Source of the DNA: an uncultured Pelagibacteraceae bacterium
Lineage (GTDB): Bacteria > Pseudomonadota > Alphaproteobacteria > Pelagibacterales > AG-422-B15
DNA length: 64,000 bases
Assembly: GCA_902518415.1 (NCBI GenBank)
Contig: CABYGA010000003.1
Span: forward strand, 894-64,893
Direction of reading: 5' to 3'
This document shows positions 10,845 through 25,695 of this stretch, piece by piece. A program made the translations under genes and the position numbers. Below the pieces are notes generated by a model. That model saw only the letters and a program-made list of their open reading frames with translations, ran no database searches and was not told the DNA's origin. Each line of letters starts with the position of its first letter. Within the stretch, counting starts at the first letter, position 1.

Positions 10845-11972
10845 ATGTTTAGAGTACAAATATCGGGAACAGGACTATTCACTCCTCAAGAAAAAATTTC
10901 CAACCAAGAATTAGTCGACTCATACAATAAGTATGTAGATGAATACAATTCATCAAACTCTATAGATATAAATAATGGAAGTGTGGAACCACTAGAAAAA
11001 TCTAGTGCAGAATTTATTGAGAAAGCTTCAGGTGTAAAATCTAGATATGTTCAAAATAAATCAGGAATTTTGGATACATCCTTTATGCGTCCTAGACTTA
11101 TTGAAAGATCTGAGGATCAAATATCCAATCTTGCAGAAATGGGAGTAGTTGCCGCAAAAGAAGCTATAAAAAATTCTCAAATCGATATTAAAGAGATAGA
11201 TGCTGTAATTGTTGCATGCTCAAATTTAGAACGCGCCTACCCAGCAATAGCTATTGAGATCCAAAATGAATTAGGAATAGAGGGTTTTGCATTTGACATG
11301 AATGTTGCTTGTTCCTCAGCAACTTTTGGAATTCAAACTATTTTTGACATGATAAAGAGTGGAAGTATTAAATCAGCCTTAATGGTCAATCCAGAGATTT
11401 GTACTGGTCATTTAAATTTCAAAGATAGAGACTGTCATTTTATATTTGGTGATGTTGCAACAGCCGTAGTTTTAGAAAGAATAAATGAAGATATTCATAA
11501 AAATAATTCGTATGAAATACTTGGGACAAAGCTTCTTACAGAGTTTTCTAATAATATAAGAAATAACTATGGATTTCTGAATAGTTCGTCCCCTGAAGGA
11601 GTTGGCAAGGCAGACAAATTATTCCATCAAAATGGAAGAAAAGTATTTAAAGAAGTCATACCTAAAGTTTCTAATTTAATAAAGGATCATCTAGAAGAAA
11701 ATAAACTTTCCGCCGAGGATTTAAAAGGATTGTATTTGCATCAAGCTAATGAAAATATGAATGTTCTTATTTCTAAATATGTACTTGGCAGAGAAGCGTC
11801 TAAGGATCTGGCTCCCGTCGTACTCGACGAATATGCTAATACAAGTTCAGCTGGTTCAATAATTGCTTTTCATAAACATAACAACTCACTAAAAAAAGAT
11901 GATCTCGCAATTATTTGCTCATTTGGGGCAGGTTATTCTGTGGGGAATGTTATTGTGAAAAAGATTGCTTAA
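10845..11972 (+). CDS. beta-ketoacyl-ACP synthase III-family condensing enzyme (long, 375-aa paralog type)
   Basis: Thiolase-fold KAS III pattern with active-site Cys in DMNVACSSATFG, His in LHQANENM and Asn-region GAGYS. It is longer than canonical FabH (about 320 aa). Its end overlaps the convergent HD gene by 4 nt (TTAA). Confidence 0.75.
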   Translation: MFRVQISGTGLFTPQEKISNQELVDSYNKYVDEYNSSNSIDINNGSVEPLEKSSAEFIEKASGVKSRYVQNKSGILDTSFMRPRLIERSEDQISNLAEMGVVAAKEAIKNSQIDIKEIDAVIVACSNLERAYPAIAIEIQNELGIEGFAFDMNVACSSATFGIQTIFDMIKSGSIKSALMVNPEICTGHLNFKDRDCHFIFGDVATAVVLERINEDIHKNNSYEILGTKLLTEFSNNIRNNYGFLNSSSPEGVGKADKLFHQNGRKVFKEVIPKVSNLIKDHLEENKLSAEDLKGLYLHQANENMNVLISKYVLGREASKDLAPVVLDEYANTSSAGSIIAFHKHNNSLKKDDLAIICSFGAGYSVGNVIVKKIA

Positions 11973-12520
11973 AAATTTGGCTCCTTGGAGAACAGCTTCC
12001 TCACTTTTGGTTCAAAATATTCAAGAGAATATGACTCATAATCTGGATCAAAAGATTTTTGATCCCACTTTTCACAGAAATCCACTGCATCTTGATAATA
12101 AGGGTGATCTATGAATTTATCTCTAGCATTACGATCCCTCCCTATGTGATGAGCATAGTAATATTCTTGAAAAATCCCATGATGAAGCATAATCCAATAT
12201 ACTTTTTCAGAAACATAGGGCCTTAAAACTGAGGCAACAAGTTGACTATGATTATATGGGGCAAGATTATCTCCAATATCGTGTACAAGAGTCGCAACTA
12301 CCATTTCTTCATCTGCGCCATCTTTTTCAGCTCGAGTTGCTGATTGAAGTGAATGCTCTAACCTTGTTACTTGATAACCATCAACTGAACTATCTAAATT
12401 TCTCAAAGCGTCTAATATTCTGTCGGGAAGATCTTTTGAAAACTTTTCTTCATACATACTTAAAAGATCATAATCTTCTTTTGTGCCGTCTTTCATCTGA
12501 GTAAATTTTACTTTTTCCAT
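11969..12520 (-). CDS. HD-domain protein, candidate PhnZ/TmpB-like diiron oxygenase
   Basis: 183 aa. It has H56 (LEHSLQ) and HD at 80-81 (TLVHDIGD). Further His residues are H91, H113-114 and H124-125, and Asp D153/D158 lies in FCEKWDQKSFDPDY. The ATG abuts the stop of the upstream BBOX-like dioxygenase (0-nt gap). The HD fold is confident; the oxygenase function is inference. Confidence 0.7.
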   Translation of the reverse strand: MEKVKFTQMKDGTKEDYDLLSMYEEKFSKDLPDRILDALRNLDSSVDGYQVTRLEHSLQSATRAEKDGADEEMVVATLVHDIGDNLAPYNHSQLVASVLRPYVSEKVYWIMLHHGIFQEYYYAHHIGRDRNARDKFIDHPYYQDAVDFCEKWDQKSFDPDYESYSLEYFEPKVRKLFSKEPNF

Positions 12521-13612
12521 TTATATTTCCTCTGACAATAATTTAAACTTACTTTCTGCAGAATCGTGATCTATATATAATCCCTGCAGCCATCTATCAC
12601 CTTCAGCTGTATTATAACTTGTTCTACCATGAAGTGTTCGATAATTATTCATAATAATTAAATCTCCTGGTTCTAAGCGAAACTTAAATATATATTTAGA
12701 AGAATTTATCATTTTGTGCATCACTCTTTTTGACGCATAAAATTCATCAAGCTTTTTAGGGTCTTGATAAAAAACAAAATCCAGTCTGTTACTATACTTT
12801 ATTTGCTTTATTTCTCCTCGCTCACTTAACTTGATAATCTTACCTGTTTTTTCCAGTATAGCATCTTTGTCTTTAAATTTAAAATTGATAAGAGTATTCG
12901 TAAGTGTTTTAAACGCATTTGGATTTTCATTTTTTAAGTCTTCTGCAACCTTAAACCCATCAACAATTGTTGAGTCGCCTCCTTGGCAACTATTATGAAT
13001 ACAAAAAAGAAATTGAATCGAAGGTACTGGTTTTCGATATGGATTATCAGTATGAGACTCTAATTCAATGGATGTATATGCTAAATCGTTTGGTTGTTTT
13101 TGAGACTTAACGTTGAACAATTTTCCAAAATTAGTTTCTCTTATATATCCAATTTTTTTTGCAAAATTTATAATCTCACCATCTTCGGGTTTGAGTTTGC
13201 TTACAATTGCAAATCCGTATCTATGGTAATATTCTAATATCTCATAAATTTGTTTATTTTCATTTGTATTATAATCAAATTTAAACTTTCTAAGTGAGAT
13301 ACTGTCTTTATTCCAAAAAACTTTATCAGGAAGTCCCTTTGCTCTCTTTATTTCTTTAATTAAGTTTTTTATACAATACTTAGCTACATGATTATCTGAG
13401 AATTTAATTAATAGTTTATCTTCTTCTAACTTATTTACTTCTTTGATTTCTAAATTTTCAATGATTTTCTCTGGGTCATATAGTCGTTGCAGTGAATTTT
13501 GATCGACTGCTCCTTCTTCTAATGACCGTTCTCTCATCCATAAAGGATGAAGCTTATATTGCTCATCTCCAATAGAAAACCTTATTTCTTTTGAGTCATA
13601 ATTAAAATCCAT
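12521..13612 (-). CDS. gamma-butyrobetaine hydroxylase-like (TauD/BBOX family) 2OG-Fe(II) dioxygenase, paralog 1 (TmpA-like candidate)
   Basis: 363 aa. It has an N-terminal DUF971-like segment (LHPLWMRERS), an HxD facial triad in ESHTDNPY, a distal His in RTLHGRTSY, and WLQGLYIDHD near the C-terminus. Confidence 0.75.
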   Translation of the reverse strand: MDFNYDSKEIRFSIGDEQYKLHPLWMRERSLEEGAVDQNSLQRLYDPEKIIENLEIKEVNKLEEDKLLIKFSDNHVAKYCIKNLIKEIKRAKGLPDKVFWNKDSISLRKFKFDYNTNENKQIYEILEYYHRYGFAIVSKLKPEDGEIINFAKKIGYIRETNFGKLFNVKSQKQPNDLAYTSIELESHTDNPYRKPVPSIQFLFCIHNSCQGGDSTIVDGFKVAEDLKNENPNAFKTLTNTLINFKFKDKDAILEKTGKIIKLSERGEIKQIKYSNRLDFVFYQDPKKLDEFYASKRVMHKMINSSKYIFKFRLEPGDLIIMNNYRTLHGRTSYNTAEGDRWLQGLYIDHDSAESKFKLLSEEI

Positions 13613-13626
13613 AAAAAAATATAAAA

Positions 13627-15573
13627 CTAATTTTTTAATTCTTCAATATTTTCATATTCCGATAAACAAGCAGGGTTGGCTAAGGCCTCTAAATTCTTTA
13701 TATTCACGCCATTGATTATATCTCTCACAGTAATTTCTGCTATTTTGCCACTTCTTGTTCTAGGTATATCACTTACTTTAATTATTTTTGCTGGTACATG
13801 TCTTAAAGAATTAGAAAATCTAATATTATATTTAATTTTATCAATAATAACTTGATCAAGTTCAATATCCTTTTGGAGTTTCACAAATAAAATAATTCTT
13901 GTGTCATTGTTCCAAGTCTGACCAACTACAATAGATTCAACAATTTCATCTATTTGCTCGACAGACCTATATATTTCGGCAGTTCCAATTCTAATTCCGC
14001 CAGGATTCAATGTTGAGTCTGAACGTCCATAAATGACTATTCCCATATTTTTAGATATTTTAGCGTAATCACCTTGTGTCCATACATTCTTAAATTTTGA
14101 AAAATATGATTTAATATATTTCTCTTTATTTAAGTCATCCCAAAATCCAATCGGCATAGATGGAAGTGGTGATTTACATACCAACTCACCTTTTTGAAGC
14201 GAACCCTTACCTTTTTCATCAAAAACATCTACATCTACCCCAAGACACTTACTTTGTATTTCACCAGAGTAAACTGGCAACATTGGATTGCCACCTACAA
14301 AGCAAGAAACAATGTCTGTCCCTCCACTAATGGACGCCAGATGTATATCTTTTTTAATGAATTCGTAAACATACTCAAAACTTTCACTTATAAGTGGTGA
14401 CCCTGTGCTTAATATTGATTGAAGTTTATCTAAATTATATTTTTCTAGAATATTTACTTTATCATTTCTTAAAGCGTCAATAAATTTTGCACTTGTTCCA
14501 AAGCACGTTATTTCTTCTTCTTCAGCAATTTTAAAAAGGGTTTCTTTCTCTGGATGAAATGGGGATCCGTCAAAAAGTACTAATGAAACTCCTGATGCTA
14601 AACCTGTAATAAGCCAATTCCACATCATCCATCCACAGGTTGTATAATAAAATAATTTATCGCCTATTTTAAGATCACAGTGAAGCTGATGCTCCTTTAT
14701 ATGTTGTAAAAGTGGTCCACCAGTATTATGAACTATGCATTTAGGTTTACCAGTTGTTCCACTAGAATAAAGAATATACATTGGGTCATTAAATGAGTTT
14801 TCTTCAAAAATAATTTTTCCTTGATAAGTTTCTTTTTGAAAAATTGAATTTAAACTTATTTCATCTATTCCTTTATCTAGATTCTTGTCTGGATAATTAA
14901 TACAAATGGTATGTTCGAGTGTTTTGATATTATTGATTACATTTTTTATTTTCTTTTCAATATCAAATTTTTTTCCACCATATAAATAAATTTTAGAATA
15001 TAATAATACTTTTGGTTTTATTTGATTAAAACGATCTAAAATAGCTGTCTCGCCAAAATCTGGTGAACAAGATGACCAAATCGCCCCGATAGAGTTCACT
15101 GCTAAAAATGCAATTAGTGTCTCAGCACTGTTTACCGCAACAGCCGCGATCCGGTCTCCTTTTTTAACCCCAATAGATCTAAAATAGTTAGCTAATATTG
15201 AAGTTTTTAATACTAAATCTTCCTTATAATAACTTTTCTTGAAACCAAGTTCATTGATAAAGGTAATCGGGCATGAATTAAGATTAGATAAAATATTTTC
15301 TGCGTAATTAACTTTAATATTTTTGAAAAATTCTTGGTTATATATAGATTTATCTTTTTCAATAACAGGACTAGAACTTCCTTTGTACTTTATGCCCAGA
15401 TAATCAATTAAGCTTAGCCAAAATTCAGCAGGGTGATTAATGCTCCACGACCAGATTTTACCATAATCAAAGTTTAATTGTATTTTGTTGTTTTCTTCTA
15501 AAAAAATAAAATAATTATATAAATTTGTTTTTTTAATTCTTTCCTTAGATGGGCTCCAAAGCAACTTTGGCAT
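13627..15573 (-). CDS. acetoacetate--CoA ligase (acetoacetyl-CoA synthetase)
   Basis: 648 aa. It has the AMP-binding motif YSSGTTGKPKCIVH, an N-terminus LWSPSKERIKKTNLYNYF typical of AACS, and a C-terminal PRTRSGK. Confidence 0.8.
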   Translation of the reverse strand: MPKLLWSPSKERIKKTNLYNYFIFLEENNKIQLNFDYGKIWSWSINHPAEFWLSLIDYLGIKYKGSSSPVIEKDKSIYNQEFFKNIKVNYAENILSNLNSCPITFINELGFKKSYYKEDLVLKTSILANYFRSIGVKKGDRIAAVAVNSAETLIAFLAVNSIGAIWSSCSPDFGETAILDRFNQIKPKVLLYSKIYLYGGKKFDIEKKIKNVINNIKTLEHTICINYPDKNLDKGIDEISLNSIFQKETYQGKIIFEENSFNDPMYILYSSGTTGKPKCIVHNTGGPLLQHIKEHQLHCDLKIGDKLFYYTTCGWMMWNWLITGLASGVSLVLFDGSPFHPEKETLFKIAEEEEITCFGTSAKFIDALRNDKVNILEKYNLDKLQSILSTGSPLISESFEYVYEFIKKDIHLASISGGTDIVSCFVGGNPMLPVYSGEIQSKCLGVDVDVFDEKGKGSLQKGELVCKSPLPSMPIGFWDDLNKEKYIKSYFSKFKNVWTQGDYAKISKNMGIVIYGRSDSTLNPGGIRIGTAEIYRSVEQIDEIVESIVVGQTWNNDTRIILFVKLQKDIELDQVIIDKIKYNIRFSNSLRHVPAKIIKVSDIPRTRSGKIAEITVRDIINGVNIKNLEALANPACLSEYENIEELKN

Positions 15574-15594
15574 ATCAAAAATATTTATTATATC

Positions 15595-17019
15595 TTAGGC
15601 AATGTGGAGTGCTTTAGTTTCAAGGTAATCTTCTAGCCCCATGTCTCCACCTTCTCGTCCATTGCCAGATTCTTTATATCCTCCAAAAGGTGATCCGTAA
15701 TTATAACCGCCACCATTAACATGAACACCGCCAGCTCTTAATTGCCTTGAGACTCGTTCTGCTCTTTCTTTATCTCCCGTCTGCAAATAGGCAGCAAGAC
15801 CATAAGGAGTATCATTTGCTATTCTGATCGCCTCATCCTCATCATCAAAAGGAATTATAACTAGTACTGGACCAAATATTTCCTCTTGAGCAACTCTCAT
15901 ATTGTTATTTACGTCAGAAAAAATTGTTGGTTTTACAAACCATCCTTTTTCGTGGCCATCGGGCTTTCCAAGGCCACCTACTAATAGTTTTGCTCCTTCA
16001 TCAATACCAACTTGAATCATATTTTGAACCCGATCAAATTGAATTTTATCAAAGAGTGGTCCGAGATGGTCACCATCTAGTGTCGGATCACCTACCTTAA
16101 TTTCTTCAGCAGTTTTTTTTGCAATATCAATTACTTCATCATAGCATTTTTTTTCTACCAGTAACCTTGTAGGAGCATCACAAGATTGTCCTGTATTAAA
16201 CATACATTCATTTACTGAATCTTTTACTTTTTCATCTAAGTCACAATCTGCAAAGACAATGTTAGGTGATTTACCACCTAATTCTAAAGTTACTTTTTTT
16301 ACAGTTTCAGCAGATTCAATAGTTACTGACTTACCCCCTCTTTTTGAGCCAGTAAATGACATCATTTCTATATCAGGATGCCGAGACATCGACACACCTA
16401 CTCCTTCTCCATCTCCATGTACTAAATTAAATACACCATCAGGAACTCCGGCCTCATCTAGAATTTCAGCATAAACCATCGCTGATAAAGGTGTATGCTC
16501 AGACGGCTTTAAGATACATGTGCATCCTGTAGCAATCACTGGAAGGACTTTCAGTGTAATCTGATTAATGGGCCAGTTCCATGGAGTAATTAAACCACAA
16601 ACTCCTATTGGCTCTTTTAAAAGTACATCTGAATTAGAGAGAACAATTTTTTCTTCATGCTTCTTTAATGCATCAATAAAACCATCTAAATGTCCTATTG
16701 CAGCATCTGCCTGTGCATCTCGAGCCATTCTATGAGGAGCTCCCATTTCTGATGTCATTGCATTAGCAAGATCTTCAAATCTTTTTTCAGAGATCTTCCT
16801 AATTTTATTTAATAATTCTAAACGATCATTTTTTGAAGTTTTAGAAAAGCTATTAAATGCATTTTTTGCAGCGCTCACAGCCATATCTACATCTTCAGAA
16901 TTACCAAGAATTATCTCACCTATCAAATCTTCGGTTGCGGGGTTGAGAACTGCCATTGTTTTAGTTGAATTGGGTTTTACCCATTTACCGTTAATATAAA
17001 ATTTTTGAAGATTTTCCAT
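15595..17019 (-). CDS. NAD(P)-dependent aldehyde dehydrogenase (betaine-aldehyde or 4-trimethylaminobutyraldehyde dehydrogenase candidate)
   Basis: 474 aa. ALDH signatures are ITPWNWP, LELGGKSP (catalytic Glu) and FNTGQSCDAPTR (catalytic Cys). The substrate cannot be read from the sequence. Confidence 0.85.
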   Translation of the reverse strand: MENLQKFYINGKWVKPNSTKTMAVLNPATEDLIGEIILGNSEDVDMAVSAAKNAFNSFSKTSKNDRLELLNKIRKISEKRFEDLANAMTSEMGAPHRMARDAQADAAIGHLDGFIDALKKHEEKIVLSNSDVLLKEPIGVCGLITPWNWPINQITLKVLPVIATGCTCILKPSEHTPLSAMVYAEILDEAGVPDGVFNLVHGDGEGVGVSMSRHPDIEMMSFTGSKRGGKSVTIESAETVKKVTLELGGKSPNIVFADCDLDEKVKDSVNECMFNTGQSCDAPTRLLVEKKCYDEVIDIAKKTAEEIKVGDPTLDGDHLGPLFDKIQFDRVQNMIQVGIDEGAKLLVGGLGKPDGHEKGWFVKPTIFSDVNNNMRVAQEEIFGPVLVIIPFDDEDEAIRIANDTPYGLAAYLQTGDKERAERVSRQLRAGGVHVNGGGYNYGSPFGGYKESGNGREGGDMGLEDYLETKALHIA

Positions 17020-17088
17020 TTTGTTTTTTATTACATACTATACTATTCAAATTGTAAATTCTTTTTAATATTGTAACTTCATTGTCTT
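17020..17088. promoter_or_regulatory. 69-bp divergent control region between the two catabolic operons, with ATTGTAA direct repeats
   Basis: ATTGTAA occurs at 17051-17057 and 17070-17076, and ATTGTC at 17081-17086. This is the only non-coding DNA available for promoters of both operons. No regulator gene is nearby. Confidence 0.4.
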
Positions 17089-17973
17089 ATGAATAAAAAT
17101 GTTATCATTTCTTGTGCAGTTACCGGATCGGGGGACTCAGTTGGAAAGCATCCTAATATTCCTGTTACTCCTCAACAAATAGCTGATGCCTCTATTGAGG
17201 CAGCAAATGCTGGAGCCGCTATAGCCCATATTCATGTTAGAAATCCTGAAACTGGAAAGGGATCCCGAGATAATGAACTCTATAAGGAAGTAGTTAGTCG
17301 AATTAAAGATAGTGGAACGAATGTGATAATTAATCTCACAAGTGGAATGGGAGGAGATATAGAAATTGGTCCAGAAGATGATTTATTAAACTTTGGTTCG
17401 AATACAGATTTTGTAAATGCACTAGAAAGACTAAGTCACGTTGAAGAACTATTGCCAGATATATGTTCCTTAGATTGCGGCACTCTAAATTTTGGTGATG
17501 GAAATATGATCTATGTTGGAACCCCAGAACAACTAAGAATTGGCGCTAAGAGAATTCAAGAATTAGGAGTTAAACCTGAACTAGAAGTCTTTGATACAGG
17601 TCATTTGTGGTTTGCAAACCAGATGTTAGAGGAAGGATTGCTGGATCAGCCCTCATTGTTTCAAATTTGTTTAGGTATACCGTACGGTGCGCCTGCGACT
17701 ACCGGTTCAATGAAGAATATGGTTGATATGATACCTGAAGGAAGTAACTGGGGGGCTTTTGGAATTGGAATTAATCAAATGCCGATGGTAGCGCAAGCGG
17801 TATTATTAGGAGGCAATGTTAGAGTTGGTCTTGAAGATAATCTTTATTTAGAAAAAGGTGTTTATGCAACAAATGGATCACTTGTTGAGAAGGCTGGTAC
17901 AATAATAAATAATTTAGGCTCGAATGTAATGGGTCCTGATGAAGCAAGAATCAAACTTGGATTAAAAAGTTGA
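17089..17973 (+). CDS. BKACE-family (DUF849) beta-keto acid cleavage enzyme, dehydrocarnitine cleavage enzyme candidate
   Basis: 294 aa. The N-terminus [12 protein letters not shown]...[34 protein letters not shown] is typical of the 3-keto-5-aminohexanoate cleavage enzyme family. It is translationally coupled to the next gene. Confidence 0.8.
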
Positions 17974-18941
17974 AAAGAAAGATTGTTTCGATTATTGGAA
18001 CAGGCGTAATTGGCGCTGGATGGGCGGCACGATTTCTTGCTAAAGGTTATGTTGTTAAAGCTTATGACCCCAACAAAGAGTCGCTAGAAAAATTAAAAAA
18101 AAATATTCAGACTGCCTTTAAAAGTCTTAAAAAGTTAGGTTTAAATAAAAACGCTTCATTGAAGAATCTAAATGCTTTTACTAATTTGAATGATGCTTTA
18201 CATGAAACAACCTTTGTTCAGGAAAATGCGCCTGAAAGTGAAAGAATAAAAAAAAATATTCTAAAAAAAATTGATAATATAATTCCCAAAAATGTTATAA
18301 TTGCATCTAGTTCTTCTGGATTACTACCATCAAAAATTCAATCCGCCTGCAAATTTCCTGAAAGAGTTTTAATCGGACATCCATTTAATCCAGTATACTT
18401 ATTGCCTCTTGTGGAGATTGTAGCTGGTAAAAAAACTAGTCATACAAATGTTAAAAAATTAAAAAAATTATATGAACATATTGGAATGCGACCGCTCATT
18501 GTTCAAAAAGAAATTGAAGGATACATTTCAGACAGACTGCAAGAAGCTTTATGGCGTGAGGCCTTGCATATAATAAATGATGGCGTAGCATCAACTGAGG
18601 AAGTTGATGATGCTATTGTCTATGGTCCTGGATTAAGATGGGCTTTTATGGGGGTTTGTTTGACATTTCATTTAGCTGGTGGAGAAACTGGAATGAAACA
18701 TATGCTGGAGCAATTTGGTCCTGCTCTAAAACTACCTTGGACTAAGTTGAAAGCTCCTGAATTGACGGATAAACTAAAAAAAGCAATGGTTTCTGGAACA
18801 AAAAAACAGGCTGGAAAGTTTAATATCCAAGAGCTTGAGGAACAAAGAGATTTGTTTTTGATTGAAATTATGAAAACTTTAAATAAAAATCAAAAAGATA
18901 AGTTTCCAAATTGGGGTAGGAAATACAATAATTTTAAATAA
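17970..18941 (+). CDS. L-carnitine dehydrogenase-like 3-hydroxyacyl-CoA dehydrogenase family protein
   Basis: 323 aa. It has a Rossmann motif [20 protein letters not shown]. The long segment [17 protein letters not shown]...ALWREAL...[10 protein letters not shown]...[25 protein letters not shown] matches my recollection of bacterial carnitine dehydrogenases. The TTG start overlaps the BKACE stop (TTGA). Confidence 0.7.
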
Positions 18942-18944
18942 TTT

Positions 18945-20087
18945 ATGAGTCATAATCCATCTATATCGTCGTTGAAAAAGAATGCTAAGTCAATACTTGT
19001 TGATTGGAGTGATGGTGAGCAAAGTAAGTTTAATTTTTTATGGTTAAGAGATAATTGTCCATCAGAGGTTCATCCAACTGCAAGAGAGAGAACTTTCAAC
19101 CTACTAACAGTTACAGATGATATTCATCCAAAGTCTTATAAAGTAAATGATAAAGGTGAGCTTGAGATTGAATGGAGTGAGGGTGATCATACAAGTTACT
19201 ATGGCAATGATTGGCTAAGACATAATTGCTATACACTTAACAGTAAAAAAAAATATATATCACCATATTTTCTATGGGATCAAAGCATGGAGTCAAATTT
19301 TGAAGATATTCAAATAGACTATGAAGAAATTATTAGTGGAGATGATGGAATAAAAAAGTGGCTTGAGCAACTTCACTACAAAGGCATTTCTATTGTGAAA
19401 AACGCGCCTACAGAAAAGGAGTCTGGATTTGATGTAATTGCTAATATTAGTCACCATAGAGAAACATTTTTTAAAACACCTTTTGAAGTTATTGATATTC
19501 CTAATCCAAATAATTCTGCTTATACCGCAGCCGCGTTAAGAAATCATTTGGATCTCCCATACTATGAAATAGCACCAGGATATCAATTCTTGCATTGTCT
19601 GATTAACAATGCCACTGGAGGTGAGTCTGTCGCAGTCGATGGATTTAAAGTTGCTAGTTATATGAAAGAAAATTTTACTGAATTCTTTGAAACTCTCTTG
19701 GAAACTCCTGTAAAATTTGTAAATAGAGATTATACTTCAAATGCTATAAGAGTAATGCATAAGCCTCTATTTTCCTTAGATCACAATAATGATTTTAATG
19801 ATATAAGATTTAGTGTTGCTTATATGGGGGTCATGGACTGTGACCCCGACCAAATGGATAAGTTTTACGAAGCTTACCGAAAACTAATTGCCTTACTTCA
19901 CGATCCAATATTTGAAATAAATTTCAAACTTAAAGCTGGAGATATATTCAGTTTTAATAATAGAAGGGTGCTTCACGGTCGAAAAGAATACGATGCTAAT
20001 TCTGGTGAAAGACACCTGCAGGGATATTATATTGATAGAGATGAAATAATAGGAAGACTTAACTTTCTAAATAAAATTAATCCTTAG
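18945..20087 (+). CDS. gamma-butyrobetaine dioxygenase-like 2OG-Fe(II) dioxygenase, paralog 2
   Basis: 380 aa. It has a DUF971-like N-domain (FLWLRDNCPSEVHP), HxD in RNHLDLPYYE, a distal His in RVLHGRKEY, and HLQGYYIDRDE. Confidence 0.7.
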   Translation: MSHNPSISSLKKNAKSILVDWSDGEQSKFNFLWLRDNCPSEVHPTARERTFNLLTVTDDIHPKSYKVNDKGELEIEWSEGDHTSYYGNDWLRHNCYTLNSKKKYISPYFLWDQSMESNFEDIQIDYEEIISGDDGIKKWLEQLHYKGISIVKNAPTEKESGFDVIANISHHRETFFKTPFEVIDIPNPNNSAYTAAALRNHLDLPYYEIAPGYQFLHCLINNATGGESVAVDGFKVASYMKENFTEFFETLLETPVKFVNRDYTSNAIRVMHKPLFSLDHNNDFNDIRFSVAYMGVMDCDPDQMDKFYEAYRKLIALLHDPIFEINFKLKAGDIFSFNNRRVLHGRKEYDANSGERHLQGYYIDRDEIIGRLNFLNKINP

Positions 20088-21102
20088 ATCTTCTCAAGAT
20101 TTCAGCAATATTATTCTTAGAAATAACACCCACAAAATTTTTATCATTATCGAGTACATTAAGACCCGACTCACTTTCAAGCATAGTTGGTAGGCAGTTT
20201 TCAATACTTTCATCGACCATTACTGATGGATTAGACTCATTCATATTTCCATCTATGTTCATAATAGATCCAATTTTCAATACTTTAATTCGGTTCACAT
20301 CTTTTACGAAATTGGAAACATACTCATCAGCAGGATTGAGTAGGATTTCTTCGGCGTTACCATCTTGAACAAGTTTTCCACCATTTAGGATGGCAATTCT
20401 ATCGCCTAATTTAAGAGCCTCATCTAAATCATGAGTTATAAAAATAATTGTTTTTTTTAGATTTTTTTGTAAATCTAGAAGCTGGTCTTGCATATCTGTC
20501 CTTATAAGTGGGTCCAGTGCGCTAAATGCTTCATCCATTAATAGAATATCAGGATCTATCGCAAGTGCTCGAGCTAGCCCAACTCTTTGCTGCATGCCAC
20601 CTGATAATTGATTTGGAAATTTATTTTCAAACCCTGTGAGTCCCACTTTTTCAATCCAATACATTGCTTTGTCCTTCGACTCTGATCTGTCTAAATTTTT
20701 TATACTTAGTCCAAATTGAACATTGTCTAATATGTTATGATGAGGAAAAAGAGCAAATCTCTGAAATACCATGCCTGTTTTATTTCTTCTAAACTCAAGT
20801 AAATCTGCTTTATTCAGTTTAGTTATATCTTCTCCGTCGACTAATACCGTTCCTTCTGTTGGCTCTATCAAACGATTAATATGACGAATAAGAGTTGATT
20901 TTCCTGAACCAGATAAACCCATCACAACTTGAATAGATTGTTCTTTTATATCTAAATTTATATTGTCGAGTCCCAACACATGATTATATTTTGCGAGAAG
21001 CTCATCTTTATCAATCCCACTTTTTACTTTATCAGTGTATTCTTTGGCCCTAGGTCCAAATATTTTATATAATTTTTCAATTTTGATTTTAACTTCACTC
21101 AT
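20077..21102 (-). CDS. proV: glycine betaine/proline-type ABC transporter ATP-binding protein
   Basis: Walker A GLSGSGKST, signature LSGGMQQRVGLARA and Walker B ILLMDEAFSALD, plus a short CBS-like tail. I prefer the ATG at 21102 (MSEVKIKIEKLYKIFG), which overlaps the proW stop as ATGAGTGA. The ORF is open up to 21159. Confidence 0.85.
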   Translation of the reverse strand: MSEVKIKIEKLYKIFGPRAKEYTDKVKSGIDKDELLAKYNHVLGLDNINLDIKEQSIQVVMGLSGSGKSTLIRHINRLIEPTEGTVLVDGEDITKLNKADLLEFRRNKTGMVFQRFALFPHHNILDNVQFGLSIKNLDRSESKDKAMYWIEKVGLTGFENKFPNQLSGGMQQRVGLARALAIDPDILLMDEAFSALDPLIRTDMQDQLLDLQKNLKKTIIFITHDLDEALKLGDRIAILNGGKLVQDGNAEEILLNPADEYVSNFVKDVNRIKVLKIGSIMNIDGNMNESNPSVMVDESIENCLPTMLESESGLNVLDNDKNFVGVISKNNIAEILRRSKD

Positions 21103-21991
21103 TAGCGCCTGCTCTATGCTGCTGCATTCTTTTACCATAAGATTGGGATACTCTGTCAAATATAATTGCTAGTGCGACGATGGCTAAACCATTAAGTAAT
21201 CCCATTGTAAAGTATTGATTAGTTATTGCCTTTAAAACTGGTTGACCGAGACCCTTAACACCAATCATTGAAGCAATCACAACCATGGCTAGCGCCATCA
21301 TAATTGTTTGATTAATACCGGCAAAAATTGTAGGCAGGGCTAAAGGGAGCTGTACTCTAAATAGTTTTTGCATTCTGTTAGCTCCAAAGGCGTCAGCTGC
21401 TTCTAGTACCTCTTTATTGACTTCTCTTATTCCTAAATCAGTGAGTCTAATCACTGGAGGTATCGCATAAATAATAACAGCTAATAAACCTGGAATTTTT
21501 CCAATACCTAGCAACATAACAACAGGAATAAGGTAAACAAAGCTAGGCATGGTTTGCATGATATCCAATATTGGGGTAATCATTGCTCTTGCTCTATCAC
21601 TGCCAGACATAAGGATACCAACAGGAATTCCAAATCCAATAGTCAGCGCAGTACAAACACCAATGATACTTACTGTAGACATAGTATCATCCCACATTCC
21701 AAAGTAACCAATGAACAAAAACGCAAATAATGATCCAATAGTCAGGTAAATACTTCTACTGCCAAGATATACTAAGGCCAGTAGAGCAAGTATTACAAGA
21801 GGCCAGGGTGAATTATGCAGAAGCTTCTCAAACCAAACTAAGAAATAAAGAACTGGATCAAAAACAGCTTCTATAGCATCACCGTATTTTGCAGAAAAAC
21901 TTCTATAAGCACCATCAACTGACTTTTTAAAAAGCCTTAGACTTTCAGAGCTCATTTCAGGGAATGAAGTAAAAAATTCTATCAAGTTCAT
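21095..21991 (-). CDS. proW: glycine betaine/proline-type ABC transporter permease
   Basis: 298 aa and multi-TM, with an EAA-like loop EAADAFGANRMQKLFRVQLPLA typical of ProW/OpuAB permeases. Confidence 0.85.
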   Translation of the reverse strand: MNLIEFFTSFPEMSSESLRLFKKSVDGAYRSFSAKYGDAIEAVFDPVLYFLVWFEKLLHNSPWPLVILALLALVYLGSRSIYLTIGSLFAFLFIGYFGMWDDTMSTVSIIGVCTALTIGFGIPVGILMSGSDRARAMITPILDIMQTMPSFVYLIPVVMLLGIGKIPGLLAVIIYAIPPVIRLTDLGIREVNKEVLEAADAFGANRMQKLFRVQLPLALPTIFAGINQTIMMALAMVVIASMIGVKGLGQPVLKAITNQYFTMGLLNGLAIVALAIIFDRVSQSYGKRMQQHRAGANE

Positions 21992-21994
21992 CTT

Positions 21995-22028
21995 AAAAAA
22001 AAAGCGGGCTAAAAAGAAATTAGCCCGC
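21995..22028 (-). terminator. intrinsic terminator/attenuator between proX and proW
   Basis: The minus-strand RNA reads GCGGGCUA-AUUUCUUUU-UAGCCCGC followed by U9, ending 3 nt before the proW AUG. Confidence 0.7.
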
Positions 22029-22040
22029 TGTTATCAGCTG

Positions 22041-23057
22041 TTATATAGCTGCTTCTATTAGTTTACGCGTATCAGCATCAACCCAATCATGCCACTCACT
22101 ATAATTTTTTAAGAAGTATAGTGCAGCATCCTCACCAGAGGCTTGTTGATCTGCCATCCAAGCTAACACTTCGTTAACAGTTGTGTTTGGCAACGCTCGC
22201 TTCTCCATGTAGTCCATGGCACCACTGCCCGCTTGATTTTTAAAGCGATCTGTTACGTAAGTGAAGACCTCAGATAAAACCCAAGAATTCTTTTTTGGAT
22301 TTCCACAGTCTTGAGATGTGCAATTAGCCCATTCATCAGCATCAAACGGAACTCCAAAATCTAGTCTTTTCATTGGATACTTTCCAAGAATTGCTGTTGG
22401 GGCCCAATAATAACCCATCCAACCTTGTTTTTTATTATACGCTTCAGCAATTGAACCATCTAAACCAGCTCCAGAACCAGGGTCAACAAGTCTAAAGCCT
22501 TTAGACTCTGCTTCAAACGCCTTAAACAAATTGCCAGTACTTATTTGACAGTTCCAACCAGACGGACAAGTGTGAAGAGCTCCGTCACCACCTTCAGGGT
22601 GAGGAAATAATTCAGGTCTAGCAAGCGCATCCTCAACGGTCTGAATGTCAGGATTAGCGTCAGCTAAATACTGAGGAATCCACCAGCCTTCTTCACCATA
22701 ACTTGAAAGAACCATAGCACCATAATGAAGCTTGCCTTCATCAACAGCTTTATCAAGTTCAATTCTATTCGCATTTGCCCACATTTCAGGCGCAACATCT
22801 GGCTCCCCTTTAGAAACCATTGACGCAGTTGTTGGTTGTGTTGAACCAGGGACTAACTCGACATCACATCCAAATCCCTTTTCTAAAACAACTTTATCTA
22901 AATTAGCAAACATTTCTGCTGATGCCCAATCCATTTCAGCAACCGAAATGGTACCACAGTCAGAAACTTCTTGATTTCTGTCACAACTGACAGCAAAGAT
23001 CATCGCAAAACCTATAAGGAATACTGCAATAACCGATTTTCTCGAGAATAAACTCAT
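22041..23057 (-). CDS. proX: quaternary-amine (glycine betaine-type) ABC transporter substrate-binding lipoprotein
   Basis: 338 aa. The signal peptide carries a lipobox (FAVSC). It is an OpuAC/ProX-like Trp-rich protein (MDWASAEMF, EMWANA, GWWIPQY, GYYWAP). Confidence 0.8.
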   Translation of the reverse strand: MSLFSRKSVIAVFLIGFAMIFAVSCDRNQEVSDCGTISVAEMDWASAEMFANLDKVVLEKGFGCDVELVPGSTQPTTASMVSKGEPDVAPEMWANANRIELDKAVDEGKLHYGAMVLSSYGEEGWWIPQYLADANPDIQTVEDALARPELFPHPEGGDGALHTCPSGWNCQISTGNLFKAFEAESKGFRLVDPGSGAGLDGSIAEAYNKKQGWMGYYWAPTAILGKYPMKRLDFGVPFDADEWANCTSQDCGNPKKNSWVLSEVFTYVTDRFKNQAGSGAMDYMEKRALPNTTVNEVLAWMADQQASGEDAALYFLKNYSEWHDWVDADTRKLIEAAI

Positions 23058-23160
23058 TCATAACTCCCATTTTTTATTTTTAGTATGAACTAATTGAAAC
23101 ATAAATCCATCCTACTATCTAGGTAAAAAGGGCGAAATTTTAATAGTTTATAGGAAAATT

Positions 23161-24057
23161 CTAAGCTACTGATTTATATAATTTATTTCCAGCATATATC
23201 TCAATCAATGGAGCACTCATAACAAATACCGCACCAATAAATTCTCTCATTGTAATAATTTCATTGGCTAATAGATATGCAGATATTATGCCAATAACAA
23301 CTTCGAACATTAGTAGAATACCAGCTTTACCTGGATCTACTTGATCTTGGCCGAAAGTAATAAGCCAATATCCAGGGAGCAACCAAATAAAAGCGAATAT
23401 TAAAATTATTATATAAGTATTAGATATTATCTCAGTATTGAAACCTATGAGCACTTGTCCATCAGGCAAAAGAGTTGCAATGATAACAAATAATCCCCCA
23501 ATGAGTATGAAGATTGAAGTCCCAAAGTTAACATCCAATTCCTTATTAATTCTGATTATAGTTGCACAAACTGACCACAAAAACCCAGAAGTTATACCGA
23601 ATAAATCAGCAAGAGAAGTTGGCAAAATATTACCTTTGTCCAGCCCTGTTATAATAAAAAGACCAGTGAATCCGGCTGCTATAGAAAAGGCCCTATATAT
23701 AGTTAAAGGAGTTCTTAAAAATACGATCTCAATAATTGTACTCCAAACAGCTGTAAGATAGAAAAATATTAAAATCCTTGCCACGTTCCCACGTAATAAT
23801 CCTTCATTGTATAGACACATTGCAGCCGCACCTGCGGTCGCTGCAACTATCGTAAGTATTATATTTTTTTTTGTTAATAAATGTACGTTTCGAAGTGAAA
23901 AACTTAAAAGAAAAAAGCCAGCAAGCATAAAGCTTAATGTTAGTGGTATCGCATTATTGTTTGCATACTCATTTAATAAACGCAAAGGATACCACCATGT
24001 GCCCCAGAGCAGAGTAGATAATACTATTGCTAAACTTGGATTTAAGTTTTTTAACAT
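23161..24057 (-). CDS. EamA/DMT-family transporter
   Basis: 298 aa, about 10 predicted TM helices, with the duplicated EamA-like architecture. Confidence 0.7.
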   Translation of the reverse strand: MLKNLNPSLAIVLSTLLWGTWWYPLRLLNEYANNNAIPLTLSFMLAGFFLLSFSLRNVHLLTKKNIILTIVAATAGAAAMCLYNEGLLRGNVARILIFFYLTAVWSTIIEIVFLRTPLTIYRAFSIAAGFTGLFIITGLDKGNILPTSLADLFGITSGFLWSVCATIIRINKELDVNFGTSIFILIGGLFVIIATLLPDGQVLIGFNTEIISNTYIIILIFAFIWLLPGYWLITFGQDQVDPGKAGILLMFEVVIGIISAYLLANEIITMREFIGAVFVMSAPLIEIYAGNKLYKSVA

Positions 24058-24102
24058 TATCTAATGTTGTACTATAAATATAATATTTGATAAAATCATT
24101 TC

Positions 24103-25695
24103 ATGAAATTAAATAACTTTGATTATATTATAATTGGAGCTGGTAGTGCTGGTTGTGTACTAGCCAATCGCCTTTCATCAAATAAAGCTATTAATGTCCT
24201 GCTAATAGAATCTGGACCTTCAGACAATACTTGGAAGACTACAATGCCTGCAGCACTGCTTTATACAATGCACGATCCAAAATATAATTATCTTTATGAG
24301 TCTGAGCCAGAGCCATTTATGCATAATAGGACTATGTTCTGCCCCAGGGGCAAGATGTTGGGAGGAAGTTCCTCACACAATGGTATGGTTCATGTAAGAG
24401 GCAATGCAAATGATTTCGATAACTGGGGACAGTTGGGTTTAACAGATTGGACTTACGATAAAGTTTTACCCTATTTTAAAAAATCTGAGTCAGTTGAGGG
24501 TTTAGACTCAAATTTTCGAGGAGAGTCGGGACCATTAAAACTTTCAAGATCGCCCAATGGCAATATTCTTAGTCAAGTTTATTTAAATGCCGCTCAACAA
24601 GCTGGATATCAAATCAATAATGATATGAATGGTGAAAGACAAGAAGGTTTTGGATTAATGGATACAACTATTTTTAATGGAAAGAGGCAAAGTACAAGCG
24701 TTACTTATCTTCATCCAATAAAGCACAGATCTAACTTGGAGATATTAACAAACGTAACTGTAAATAAGATACTATTTGAGGATAAAAAAGCTGTTGGGGT
24801 TGAATGCAAGGCGAATGGTGAAAATAAAAAATATTTTTCAAGCAAAGAGGTCCTTCTTTCTGCTGGGGCTATAAATTCACCTCAACTACTTATGCTATCT
24901 GGAATTGGTCCAGAAAATGAATTATCAAAATATAGCATTGAGCCAGTAGAGTGTTTGGAGGGAGTTGGGAAAAACTTGCAAGACCATCTTGAAACCTATG
25001 TTCAATATAAATGTAAAAAGCCTGTAACACTGCACAGTGCTCAGAACCCATTAAAAATGGCATTGATAGGTGCTGAATGGTTTTTGTTTAAGACAGGTGT
25101 TGCTGCACACTCTAATCTAGAAACAGGTGGATTTGTGAGGAGCAATGAAATGTCTGATTATCCAAATATGCAATTCCATTTTTTTCCATCTTTAGTTTTA
25201 GATCATGGTAGAAAGAGCACTACCTGCCATGCTTTTCAAGCACATGTTGGACCGATGCGACCTACTAGCAGAGGATCAGTAAAATTAAAATCAGCTAATC
25301 CAAACGATGCGCCTTCAATCCAATTCAATTACATGCAAACTGAACATGATCTTAGAGAAATGCGAGAAGGAATAAAAATTGCAAGGGAGATATTTAATCA
25401 AAAAGAATTCGATGAATATAGAGGAGAAGAAATCTCTCCAGGAAGTGATATAAACAATGATGAAGATCTGAATAATTTTATAAGAGATAAAGGAGATACT
25501 GCATACCATCCATCATGTACGTGTAAAATGGGTAAAGATAATTTATCAGTTGTAGACGAGGAGCTGAAAGTATACGGAATAGATGGATTGAGAGTCATAG
25601 ATGCATCTATTATGCCTAATATTATTACGGGTAATCTGAACGCATCAACAGTAATGATTGCTGAAAAGGCGTCTGACTCAATTATAAATAATTAA
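24103..25695 (+). CDS. betA: choline dehydrogenase (GMC oxidoreductase)
   Basis: 530 aa. It has FAD motif DYIIIGAGSAGCVLANRLS, GMC signatures GKMLGGSSSHNGMVHVRG and SAGAINSPQLLMLSGIG, and C-terminal HPSCTCKMG. Confidence 0.8.
   Translation: MKLNNFDYIIIGAGSAGCVLANRLSSNKAINVLLIESGPSDNTWKTTMPAALLYTMHDPKYNYLYESEPEPFMHNRTMFCPRGKMLGGSSSHNGMVHVRGNANDFDNWGQLGLTDWTYDKVLPYFKKSESVEGLDSNFRGESGPLKLSRSPNGNILSQVYLNAAQQAGYQINNDMNGERQEGFGLMDTTIFNGKRQSTSVTYLHPIKHRSNLEILTNVTVNKILFEDKKAVGVECKANGENKKYFSSKEVLLSAGAINSPQLLMLSGIGPENELSKYSIEPVECLEGVGKNLQDHLETYVQYKCKKPVTLHSAQNPLKMALIGAEWFLFKTGVAAHSNLETGGFVRSNEMSDYPNMQFHFFPSLVLDHGRKSTTCHAFQAHVGPMRPTSRGSVKLKSANPNDAPSIQFNYMQTEHDLREMREGIKIAREIFNQKEFDEYRGEEISPGSDINNDEDLNNFIRDKGDTAYHPSCTCKMGKDNLSVVDEELKVYGIDGLRVIDASIMPNIITGNLNASTVMIAEKASDSIINN

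Follow-up and report, generated by a model that had tools for sequence, protein, structure and literature searches.

A gene island at positions 11969-25695 of a 64,000-nt stretch from an uncultured Pelagibacteraceae bacterium (SAR11; contig CABYGA010000003.1, hereafter the window) probably serves to form glycine betaine from gamma-butyrobetaine, carnitine and choline and, in addition, encodes a putative cascade of a 2-oxoglutarate (2OG)-dependent hydroxylase and a small HD-domain oxygenase, for which no single substrate is implied. All domain assignments were confirmed with Pfam and NCBIfam, and the predicted carnitine catabolic function of the island core is well supported.

In the proposed pathway, substrates would be imported by a ProXWV-type ABC system. 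Gamma-butyrobetaine would then be hydroxylated to L-carnitine by the second of two gamma-butyrobetaine hydroxylase (BBOX)-family dioxygenases, BBOX2, L-carnitine would be oxidized to 3-dehydrocarnitine by a carnitine dehydrogenase (CDH), and a BKACE-family enzyme would convert the latter with acetyl-CoA to betainyl-CoA and acetoacetate, which a co-regulated acetoacetate-CoA ligase (acetoacetyl-CoA synthetase, AACS) would recover as acetoacetyl-CoA. Choline would be oxidized by BetA, possibly with help from an aldehyde dehydrogenase (ALDH). Conversion of betainyl-CoA to glycine betaine would depend on an activity not encoded in the island, and the cell could subsequently demethylate glycine betaine for gaining glycine, methyl groups and energy. 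Finally, the other 2OG hydroxylase and the HD protein would form a two-step cascade of the PhnY*/PhnZ, TmpA/TmpB or SmaO/SmaX type, with the HD oxygenase oxidatively cutting a bond and leaving a shorter betaine carboxylate, either glycine betaine or gamma-butyrobetaine.

Organization and conservation of the island

An initial annotation had described two divergent operons sharing one 69-bp control region, and all open reading frames (ORFs), strands and spacings between 11969 and 25695 were reproduced in the ORF map. The minus-strand operon comprises the genes for the HD protein (11969-12520), a TauD-family dioxygenase (12521-13612), an AMP-binding protein, i.e. AACS (13627-15573), and ALDH (15595-17019), with gaps of 0, 14 and 21 nt, respectively. 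On the plus strand, the genes for BKACE (17089-17973), a 3HCDH-fold protein, i.e. CDH (17970-18941), and BBOX2, a dioxygenase with GBBH_N and TauD domains (18945-20087), are connected by a 4-nt overlap and a 3-nt gap. Between both operons lies the common divergent intergenic region (17020-17088, 69 bp). The flanking genes encode ProV, ProW and ProX (20077-23057, minus strand), an EamA transporter (23161-24057, minus strand) and a GMC oxidoreductase (24103-25695, plus strand). Both ends of the divergon are convergent with their neighbors, the HD gene overlapping with fabH by 4 bp and the BBOX2 gene with proV by 11 bp.

A scan with one genome per GTDB species retrieved 41 Pelagibacterales genomes and about 40 other bacteria, and 16 window proteins were searched by tblastn against the loci from this species-level scan. 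The order fabH/HD-dioxygenase-AACS-(ALDH), divergent from BKACE-CDH-BBOX2/proVWX, recurs in 36 of the 41 Pelagibacterales species representatives, where the island is bounded by fabH on one side and rluD-rpoH-purA on the other. Hence, this gene order is not due to chance, and the co-conservation expected from the initial annotation is borne out across SAR11 species. Among the remaining five loci, three are broken at contig ends and two (L038 and L044) possess another left module. Synteny extends over the complete block in marine single-cell genomes, which we take to belong to GORG-Tropics by their accessions and AG- naming series, and the block is also found in Mediterranean genomes of the species-level scan. 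Moreover, 271 indexed blocks of the assembly collection contain an identical BKACE protein. The island block is a stable feature of many SAR11 lineages, with variable edges. GC content is flat at about 33% across the window, and the other window genes are of housekeeping type (tol-pal, ftsH, folP, glmM, purA, gap, pgk, and fba).

The predicted carnitine degradation core

The BKACE matches PF05853 (DUF849) with 316.5 bits, the TIM-barrel domain spanning residues 5-292 of 294, and is predicted to be a 3-dehydrocarnitine:acetyl-CoA cleavage enzyme of the CdhC type. Its scores are below the NCBIfam cutoffs for Kce (239.2 bits versus 382), 3,5-dioxohexanoate (202.4 versus 430) and 3-oxoadipate (161.2 versus 350) cleavage, which places it outside the 3-keto-5-aminohexanoate subfamily that the initial annotation had named as one alternative. 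With the BKACEs of about 40 non-SAR11 loci, the protein shares 60-73% identity, and wherever the flank is long enough, a CDH homologue (38-59% identical to the SAR11 CDH) is always located beside the BKACE gene, in L080 in antisense orientation. In about 25 of these about 40 loci, a gene for a CdhB-type (4HBT_2) thioesterase directly follows BKACE-CDH. The BKACE-CDH pair is the only part of the island that travels together outside SAR11, with Pseudomonas, Paraburkholderia, Rhodoferax, Dongiaceae, Acidobacteria and Verrucomicrobia among the hosts. In the Betaproteobacterial locus L076, the BKACE shows the same sub-threshold score profile on the other BKACE models as the SAR11 protein, and the neighboring CDH, the only non-SAR11 partner CDH scored, reaches 625.6 bits on the NCBIfam L-carnitine dehydrogenase model (cutoff 414). 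For the corresponding genes PP_0301-0303 of Pseudomonas putida (thioesterase, CDH, and BKACE), a role in carnitine catabolism has been deduced from fitness assays with randomly barcoded transposon mutants (RB-TnSeq) and homology (bioRxiv 10.1101/2021.12.09.472016); the BKACE reaction was shown biochemically by Bastard et al. (2014), according to the citation in that preprint.

The 323-aa protein encoded downstream of BKACE scores best on the L-carnitine dehydrogenase model NF005471 among 21 NCBIfam models tested (372.7 bits), with the next non-CDH model following at 233.5 bits. This speaks against the fatty-acid type, which would have been conceivable for a 3-hydroxyacyl-CoA dehydrogenase (HAD)-family protein (at most 233 bits with acyl-CoA dehydrogenase models). 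In the PDB, lambda-crystallin proteins are its nearest matches and precede all acyl-CoA dehydrogenases; these crystallin-type enzymes presumably act on free hydroxy acids and not on CoA esters. The SAR11 enzyme is probably a divergent relative of L-carnitine dehydrogenase with the same function.

Starting 3 nt after the CDH gene and translationally coupled to it, the BBOX2 gene encodes a predicted gamma-butyrobetaine hydroxylase with Pfam GBBH-like_N and TauD domains. BBOX (TIGR02409, 307.6 bits) is its best NCBIfam match, followed by TmpA with 267.9 bits, and the protein is positioned on the BBOX side of the family tree. It retains the iron triad H202, D204 and H347, the 2OG-binding R360, the aromatic cage (F, F, Y, and Y) and N191 (human BBOX numbering), and does not possess an arginine at position 294.

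The assignment of the third gene of the minus operon as AACS is backed by model scores, as the protein exceeds the cutoffs of both NF002937 (842.4 bits versus 639) and TIGR01217 (749.9 versus 520.9) over its full length. Its gene is co-regulated with the plus operon from the same 69-bp region. Altogether, the carnitine core proposed at the outset, with carnitine dehydrogenase, BKACE and salvage of acetoacetate by AACS, is upheld by model scores, BKACE-CDH pairing and co-conservation in SAR11.

Glycine betaine as probable end point

Convergence of the island on glycine betaine is further substantiated by sister islands. In SAR11 loci of the L020 type (L020:13011-17944 and about 20 similar loci), the space between BBOX2 and proV is occupied by genes for a protein of the M24 peptidase family, a homocysteine S-methyltransferase of the BHMT type and an 802-aa protein. 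The latter shows DAO and GCV_T domains and is thus of the dimethylglycine dehydrogenase (DMGDH) type. As BHMT and DMGDH would catalyze the first two demethylation steps, their position directly after BBOX2 suggests that glycine betaine is the sink, and this linkage represents the best comparative evidence for the island delivering glycine betaine.

These findings also bear on the direction of the plus operon. Conceivably, it might run toward synthesis or interconversion, with carnitine serving as compatible solute formed from gamma-butyrobetaine by BBOX2 or from glycine betaine by BKACE and CDH in reverse. The lack of a betainyl-CoA thioesterase in any SAR11 locus would then reflect this direction, and labeled glycine betaine indeed entered carnitine in North Pacific communities, for which a reversal of CDH and BKACE was proposed (PMC9321204). 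However, a bona fide acetoacetate-CoA ligase co-regulated from the same 69-bp region makes sense only if acetoacetate is produced, a betaine-CoA ligase is not present and the sister islands tie the operon to BHMT and DMGDH, which are glycine betaine consumers. Moreover, SAR11 bacteria need glycine, which they can obtain from glycine betaine (cited in PMC9321204). A synthetic role is therefore considered highly improbable.

Proceeding from the degradative direction, the choline arm is represented by the GMC oxidoreductase gene at 24103-25695, the product of which is a probable BetA-type choline dehydrogenase by its score on NF002550 (772.9 bits, subfamily cutoff 605). Assignment of the ALDH as the corresponding betaine-aldehyde dehydrogenase, one of two functions suggested initially, is not supported. 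The protein is an NAD(P)-dependent aldehyde dehydrogenase (Pfam Aldedh, 529.7 bits) but not a canonical BetB, as it fails both BetB models (TIGR01804, 435.8 bits versus cutoff 668.6; NF009725, 408.4 bits versus cutoff 593). Its nearest PDB entries, 3I44, 6X9L and 3TY7 (483-528 bits), have been deposited without a defined substrate, and BADH and AMADH entries follow at about 360 bits. Furthermore, gains and losses of the ALDH gene do not follow those of betA and the HD pair, as it is absent from L041-type SAR11 islands that keep both and present in L038, which does not have the HD pair. Judged from these scores and distributions, the ALDH is not firmly tied to either the choline or the HD-pair module.

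The initial annotation had noticed neither a betainyl-CoA thioesterase nor a regulator, and both observations hold. Using two CdhB-type proteins and the thioesterase of the Arctic SAR11 island described below as tblastn queries, a betainyl-CoA thioesterase was not found in the 64-kb window or up to 10 kb on either side of BKACE in any SAR11 locus, and a thioesterase domain is not fused to the SAR11 CDH. The HD protein was considered as a substitute and rejected, as the Betaproteobacterial loci L065 and L076 possess both the HD gene and a thioesterase, while the SAR11 loci L038 and L044 have neither. With this step missing, it may be asked how the carnitine-to-betaine pathway is brought to completion in a streamlined genome. 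Likewise, regulators or genes for glycine betaine catabolism were not found elsewhere in the 64-kb window. In the 69-bp spacer, a core of ATTACATACTATA(C/G)TAT..AATTGTAAATT is kept between SAR11 species that share about 87% identity in the flanking proteins, but neither promoter nor inverted-repeat signals exceeded shuffled sequences or the AT-rich background in this region. An Rfam E-value scan of 9-29 kb for riboswitches or other RNA control returned only a tRNA-Arg and nothing in the spacer.

The TmpA-like dioxygenase and the HD protein

The 183-aa HD protein (Pfam HD, 21 bits) belongs to a clade with PhnZ/TmpB/MIOX fold. Its putative diiron ligands H56, H80, D81, H91, H114 and D153 are kept without or almost without exception in 38-41 family members, and the AlphaFold2 model has a pLDDT of 97.7. 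In Foldseek searches with this model, the top ten matches are PhnZ and TmpB structures (TM-scores of 0.62-0.69 over about 180 columns), with MIOX next among the HD-domain structures, after two weak non-HD matches, whereas HD phosphohydrolases fit poorly. A role as ordinary phosphohydrolase was consequently judged unlikely, as good matches of the predicted fold are confined to the three HD oxygenases; by their ligand sets alone, both classes cannot be told apart.

Upstream of the HD gene and directly abutting it, the minus operon encodes a 2OG-Fe(II) dioxygenase of the BBOX/TmpA family with the signature D191/S292/R294 (human BBOX numbering), hereafter termed TmpA-like. It retains the iron triad, the 2OG-binding arginine and the aromatic cage. 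Besides SAR11 (0-bp gap), the HD gene also abuts a TmpA-side dioxygenase gene in Betaproteobacteria and on a Pseudomonas aeruginosa plasmid, and natural fusions of BBOX-family and HD domains exist in oomycetes, an amoebozoan and metagenome sequences. These fusions strongly argue for the hydroxylase and the HD protein acting in sequence. The cascades PhnY*/PhnZ, TmpA/TmpB and SmaO/SmaX have a common logic, with the first enzyme hydroxylating beside an acid group and the second one cutting the bond in a four-electron oxidation.

The initial annotation had considered a trimethylated phosphonate as possible substrate of the island. In this case, the pair would be a divergent TmpA/TmpB system converting 2-(trimethylammonio)ethylphosphonate (TMAEP) to glycine betaine and phosphate, thereby providing SAR11 with both phosphorus and betaine, while the rest of the island would function as outlined above. 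In line with this, the TmpA model NF049936 gives the highest score for the dioxygenase (338.6 bits, compared to 293.8 for BBOX), the TmpA structure sequence is likewise ahead of BBOX (198 versus 154 bits), R288 and N287 are retained, the HD protein is distantly homologous to TmpB and PhnZ and has the same ligands and fold, and the abutting hydroxylase-then-HD order is also that of the Labrenzia and Aliiroseovarius tmpAB genes. On the other hand, the HD protein gives only 43.7 bits on PhnZ (TIGR03276, cutoff 214.6), 37.5 on TmpB (NF049941, cutoff 300) and 30.3 on PhnZ1 (NF052439, cutoff 300), each over about 40-60 residues, whereas true TmpB proteins encoded beside TmpA on Labrenzia and Aliiroseovarius plasmids reach 351 bits on TmpB, about 200 on PhnZ and 146 on PhnZ1, and true TmpA orthologues reach 577 bits on the TmpA model. 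With true TmpB, the SAR11 protein aligns over its full length as a distant homologue (hhalign probability 98.2%, 27% identity). By the model scores, it is placed outside the whole C-P-cleaving clade.

Residue signatures point in the same direction. TmpA binds the phosphonate with N187, N287 and R288 (PMC9296572). In the SAR11 dioxygenase, N187 is replaced by aspartate while N287 and R288 are kept. This D187 is found in all dioxygenases paired or fused with the HD clade, namely in SAR11, three Betaproteobacterial loci, the P. aeruginosa plasmid and five fused proteins, with the exception of the fused Saprolegnia and Dracoamoeba forms (BBOX-like N/N/A). The D187 set shows serine at position 286 and retains arginine or lysine at 288, whereas position 287 is variable (P, G, A, or T in most), so that most of these proteins have also lost N287. 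In the HD partner, the substrate-gating YxxE loop (PMC8177086) is absent and aligns to V-D-G-Y. Throughout the HD clade, the lysine four residues after the fourth ligand (His+4) is replaced by glutamine (Q118), and the arginine three residues before the last ligand (Asp-3) aligns to either C149 or E150 depending on the aligner (E150 in MAFFT), whereas the TmpB sequences compared have kept both; the arginine also matches one short aligned PhnZ stretch. The lysine is presumably present in PhnZ as well, and we assume that lysine and arginine bind the phosphonate there. The HD clade has instead its own nearly invariant Arg63. Furthermore, Pho, phn or pst operons were not found in any of the pair contexts examined, apart from one Phosphonate-bd-type binding protein in L076. 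The claim of an orthologous TmpA/TmpB pair is therefore not tenable, with phosphonate-binding residues changed in both partners and HD scores of 37-44 bits over about 40 residues versus 351 for true TmpB, and the same substrate being used by a diverged pair appears doubtful; TMAEP is kept as one of several candidates.

The HD protein belongs to a separate and widespread, as yet uncharacterized clade outside TmpB, PhnZ and PhnZ1, as its scores and residues indicate. This family is large, with 231 clusters at 50% identity and E-values below 1e-30. A search with the SAR11 protein is dominated by SAR11 variants of more than 93% identity, one with the L076 protein retrieved Comamonadaceae only and a profile of the fused proteins gave five matches. 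Members of the clade also have other partners. On a Phaeobacter inhibens plasmid (L093:9001-10647), an HD protein of about 50% identity, named "inositol oxygenase family protein" by PGAP, is paired with a sterol-desaturase/fatty-acid-hydroxylase family protein and not with TauD. A pairing with a fatty-acid-hydroxylase-type protein is likewise present in P0152 (Mantoniella and marine metagenomes), with both domains fused in the prasinophyte. A more distant member adjoins a class II aldolase gene on a Sphingobium plasmid; in Tistrella, one is located in an adjacent divergent operon.

Neighborhoods and candidate substrates of the oxygenase pair

The pair ranges from SAR11 through freshwater Betaproteobacteria to a Pseudomonas plasmid, in addition to the fused forms. 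In all loci examined with a D/S/R-type dioxygenase, the pair is surrounded by genes related to quaternary amines (OpuAC or choline binding proteins, GMC, ALDH, GCV_T, and MttB). The Hydrogenophaga locus has the order MFS-ALDH-GMC-GMC-MR/MLE-ALDH-TauD-HD-GCV_T-OpuAC ABC, and in L076 the pair is found near BKACE-CDH-thioesterase and an MttB-family methyltransferase gene. On plasmid pF045_1 of a P. aeruginosa cystic fibrosis isolate (L092:4097-13829), a LysR gene precedes those for the D191-type dioxygenase, the HD protein, a choline-type binding protein, choline dehydrogenase and ALDH. This plasmid offers a genetically tractable host for studying the pair. It may be mentioned that a large CoA-transferase gene and IS66 elements are located next to this plasmid-borne cluster.

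A widespread non-phosphonate cascade for quaternary ammonium compounds, which would cleave a C-C bond following the hydroxylate-then-cut logic, is given close to, though not quite, an even chance; conversions of beta-alanine betaine to glycine betaine and CO2 or of trimethyllysine to gamma-butyrobetaine would be examples within this reading. That such cascades are not limited to phosphonates follows from SmaX, an HD-domain oxygenase cleaving the C-C bond in an alpha-hydroxy-carboxylate (JACS 2025, PMC12186529). Regarding individual substrates, a carboxylate betaine such as beta-alanine betaine, yielding glycine betaine and CO2, is tentatively put first. This compound is the closest steric analogue of TMAEP, and it is made in North Pacific communities (PMC9321204). 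TMAEP itself, to be cleaved to glycine betaine and phosphate, is weakened as candidate by the residue changes in both partners and is regarded as rather unlikely. An amino-acid betaine such as trimethyllysine, giving gamma-butyrobetaine, ranks lower again, and a similarly small chance is left for something else.

With trimethyllysine as substrate, the complete seven-gene divergon could represent one linear route from N-epsilon-trimethyllysine to glycine betaine, a bacterial copy of eukaryotic carnitine biosynthesis combined with carnitine breakdown. The TmpA-like dioxygenase would be an analogue of trimethyllysine hydroxylase (TMLH), the HD protein would cleave 3-hydroxy-trimethyllysine, and BBOX2, CDH, BKACE and AACS would follow; ALDH would oxidize 4-trimethylaminobutyraldehyde if the cleavage were aldol-like. 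To our knowledge, a dedicated animal gene for cleaving 3-hydroxy-trimethyllysine is not known. Such a route would assign a step to every gene of the divergon, and an ALDH gene is found together with the pair in SAR11, Hydrogenophaga, L076 and on the P. aeruginosa plasmid. The acid/base pairs, aspartate and arginine in the dioxygenase as well as E150 and R63 in the HD protein, would suit the zwitterionic end of an amino acid. The dioxygenase also has aspartate at the position of BBOX N191, as does TMLH with D231 (PMC7764450). However, the dioxygenase scores 184 bits on the TMLD model and is thus no closer to it than BBOX2 (199) or true TmpA (192), ALDH is missing from L041-type islands keeping the pair and present in L038 without it, and adjacent binding proteins are of choline/betaine and not of amino-acid type. 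Moreover, several pair contexts lack BBOX or CDH-BKACE nearby and appear to be centered on glycine betaine or choline, which weakens trimethyllysine as candidate. The linear route is hence regarded as improbable.

Several points weigh against the proposed combination of betaine-forming routes and oxygenase cascade as a whole. Four of the island proteins do not reach NCBIfam equivalog cutoffs: CDH (372.7 bits versus 414 for NF005471), BBOX2 (307.6 versus 414.75 for TIGR02409), the TmpA-like dioxygenase (338.6 versus 400 for NF049936) and, by a small margin, BetA (703.9 versus 732.1 for TIGR01810). As NCBIfam does not contain a curated model for the dehydrocarnitine-cleaving BKACE subfamily, the CdhC-type assignment rests on identity and gene context. 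At positions 292/293, BBOX2 bears S/V and not N/N and does not have the second of the asparagines binding the substrate carboxylate in human BBOX. No step could be assigned to ALDH, which varies independently of the other island genes, and the betainyl-CoA thioesterase is missing in the regions searched. With respect to the pair, the order of substrates given above is a ranking of inferences, and the aspartate at the N191 position of its dioxygenase also fits the logic of TMLH, where D231 has been proposed to bind the alpha-ammonium group and to set the specificity for trimethyllysine versus gamma-butyrobetaine (PMC7764450).

Comparison with known systems

In the Pseudomonas cdhCAB genes (PA5385-5387; PP_0301-0303) and the carnitine genes of Sinorhizobium meliloti, BKACE and an NAD-dependent L-carnitine dehydrogenase are paired as in SAR11. 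The predicted chemistry from L-carnitine via 3-dehydrocarnitine to betainyl-CoA and acetoacetate is the same, and a quaternary-amine ABC importer is also encoded nearby. Similar to SAR11, the Pseudomonas sp. locus L060 also adds BBOX and AACS homologues. In contrast to these systems, SAR11 possesses neither a CdhB thioesterase nor a thioesterase domain fused to CDH, and a regulator of the CdhR or any other type is not encoded. Its genes are arranged in a seven-gene divergon, with AACS, ALDH and the dioxygenase/HD pair included as well, and its CDH is only 38-59% identical to those of such loci, with a score under the curated cutoff.

A closer counterpart in terms of host is the "genomic island" of Arctic SAR11 Ia.1 bacteria (Candidatus Pelagibacter uisw_090 and others), for which CDH, BKACE, BBOX, CHDH, ALDH and a betaine ABC transporter have been listed (mBio 2025, PMC12421898). 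It belongs to the same host clade, has a similar inventory including ProXWV-type and DMT transporters, is adjacent to betaine ABC transport genes as is the present island and has likewise been interpreted as supplying glycine betaine. However, according to the sequences of its Table S4, the gene order is another one, and it contains an acyl-CoA thioesterase, a glycerophosphodiester phosphodiesterase, a class II aldolase, an SDR protein, an SMR transporter and a short classical TauD protein, whereas AACS and the TmpA-like/HD pair are lacking. Over the first 133 residues, identities with the window proteins are 60% for BKACE, 43% for CDH, 48% for BBOX and 65% for BetA. In addition, the Arctic island is polar, while the one studied here occurs in single-cell and Mediterranean genomes. 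The possibility that the Arctic BBOX(1) is a TmpA-like gene paired with the phosphodiesterase was dismissed, as its N-terminus aligns with BBOX2 (48%) and the second "BBOX" is the short classical TauD. In offshore SAR11 genera, genes for "carnitine metabolism" were also noted in 2025 (PMC12636525). The view of the initial annotation that the unit had not been described thus has to be qualified by these two reports, but it stands insofar as both remain at the annotation level, neither dissects the pathway and the Arctic island is a different one.

As for the oxygenase pair, TmpA/TmpB of Leisingera caerulea, which forms glycine betaine and phosphate from TMAEP, and PhnY*/PhnZ are likewise encoded as a BBOX-family hydroxylase gene followed by one for an all-helical HD protein of about 190 aa. 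TmpB, PhnZ and the SAR11 HD protein have the ligand set H...HD...H...H...D in common, and the predicted SAR11 fold is closest to PhnZ and TmpB. Differences are the position of the SAR11 protein outside their clade by HMM score, the loss of YxxE, Lys and Arg with Arg63 being specific to the SAR11 type, the replacement of Asn187 by Asp in the dioxygenase, and a neighborhood of betaine, choline and carnitine catabolism without phn or pst operon. Also in SmaO/SmaX, converting Asp via beta-hydroxy-Asp to aminomalonate, a 2OG hydroxylase is followed by an HD-domain oxygenase. However, SmaX has a single iron, a reduced ligand set and a peptide substrate, while the SAR11 HD protein possesses six diiron ligands and is predicted to act in small-molecule catabolism. 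Overall, the island can be described as a variant of the known carnitine-to-betaine pathway, well supported for this core, which is specific to SAR11, has no thioesterase and is joined to an uncharacterized hydroxylase/HD-oxygenase cascade.

Possible relevance for marine phnZ counts and osmolyte turnover

The HD/dioxygenase pair represents an uncharacterized branch of the small HD-domain oxygenase family and is the part of the island with wider reach. JGI names the SAR11 HD protein "predicted HD phosphohydrolase", which we take to be the name of COG4341. In a global survey, phnZ was screened by COG4341/TIGR00277 and found to be the dominant phosphonate catabolic gene, Pelagibacterales contributing 45% of the marine phnZ sequences, and oxidation of 2-aminoethylphosphonate (2-AEP) was concluded to be the dominant marine phosphonate sink (PMC9381506). 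Where phnZ subclades were separated, however, true 2-AEP phnZ turned out to be rare (PMC8316502). The SAR11 HD gene was probably counted as phnZ in the global survey and is a likely source of this discrepancy. If the C-C-cleaving reading were true, a large share of "phnZ" in ocean metagenomes would be misassigned. Knowledge of the pair's substrate would settle the disagreement. Regarding the island as a whole, SAR11 bacteria exceed all other heterotrophs of the surface ocean in abundance and cannot make their own glycine but can get it from glycine betaine. The island would widen the range of phytoplankton osmolytes feeding them to gamma-butyrobetaine, carnitine, choline and one further trimethylammonium compound, and it would provide genes that could be tested for a part in the turnover of carnitine and butyrobetaine observed with tracers in the ocean.

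Transport genes and further features of the island

The importer genes form a complete ProU/OpuA-type set in one operon. The ATPase is of ProV type (20077-21102, minus strand; TIGR01186, 363.7 bits versus cutoff 326.6). By comparison with relatives, where a 341-aa protein is called, its start is most likely at 21102 and not at the TTG at 21159 giving the longest ORF. The ProW-type permease (21095-21991, minus strand; Pfam BPD_transp_1) matches best with choline/ProW permease models, both under cutoff, and the OpuAC/ProX-type substrate-binding protein (22041-23057, minus strand; Pfam OpuAC, 173.3 bits) reaches only 30.6 bits on the ProX equivalog model. Between proX and proW, at 22003-22029 on the minus strand, a strong hairpin resembling an intrinsic terminator is present (10-bp stem with six GC pairs, followed by T8), by which binding-protein mRNA could be raised relative to that of permease and ATPase. 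The EamA/DMT-family transporter at 23161-24057 shows two EamA repeats.

ProX occurs as two alleles (about 66% versus about 98% identity) among otherwise nearly identical islands. In L012, L013, L016, L018 and L019, compared to 17970-23057 of the window, flanking island genes are 94-99% identical, while ProX is at 65-71% and ProV at 74-82%; in L018, CDH (73%) and BBOX2 (66%) also diverge. Such mosaicism suggests allele replacement through recombination and possibly corresponds to two transporter specificities. In one SAR11 species (L044:988-9853), the HD-dioxygenase-AACS-ALDH operon is replaced by genes for a cupin resembling DMSP lyase, a protein of the MR/MLE enolase superfamily and another acyl-CoA synthetase, so that the region to the left of BKACE-CDH-BBOX2 behaves like a site where accessory modules are exchanged. 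A further operon of L044 encodes an Fe-ADH, an ALDH, an amidase, a beta-lactamase-fold protein and a glyoxalase-fold protein.

About 1 kb to the left of fabH, the window contains a tRNA-Arg gene (anticodon TCG; 9792-9868, minus strand) beside a 2OG-Fe(II) oxygenase-family gene (PF13759; 9184-9783), and an integrase or repeat marking an insertion site was not seen at this tRNA. At the opposite end, between betA and rluD, a 90-aa ORF (25692-25964, minus strand) with an N-terminal hydrophobic helix and no family match shows 90-98% conservation among close relatives, and SAR11 genomes that are more distant have ORFs of comparable length at this place.

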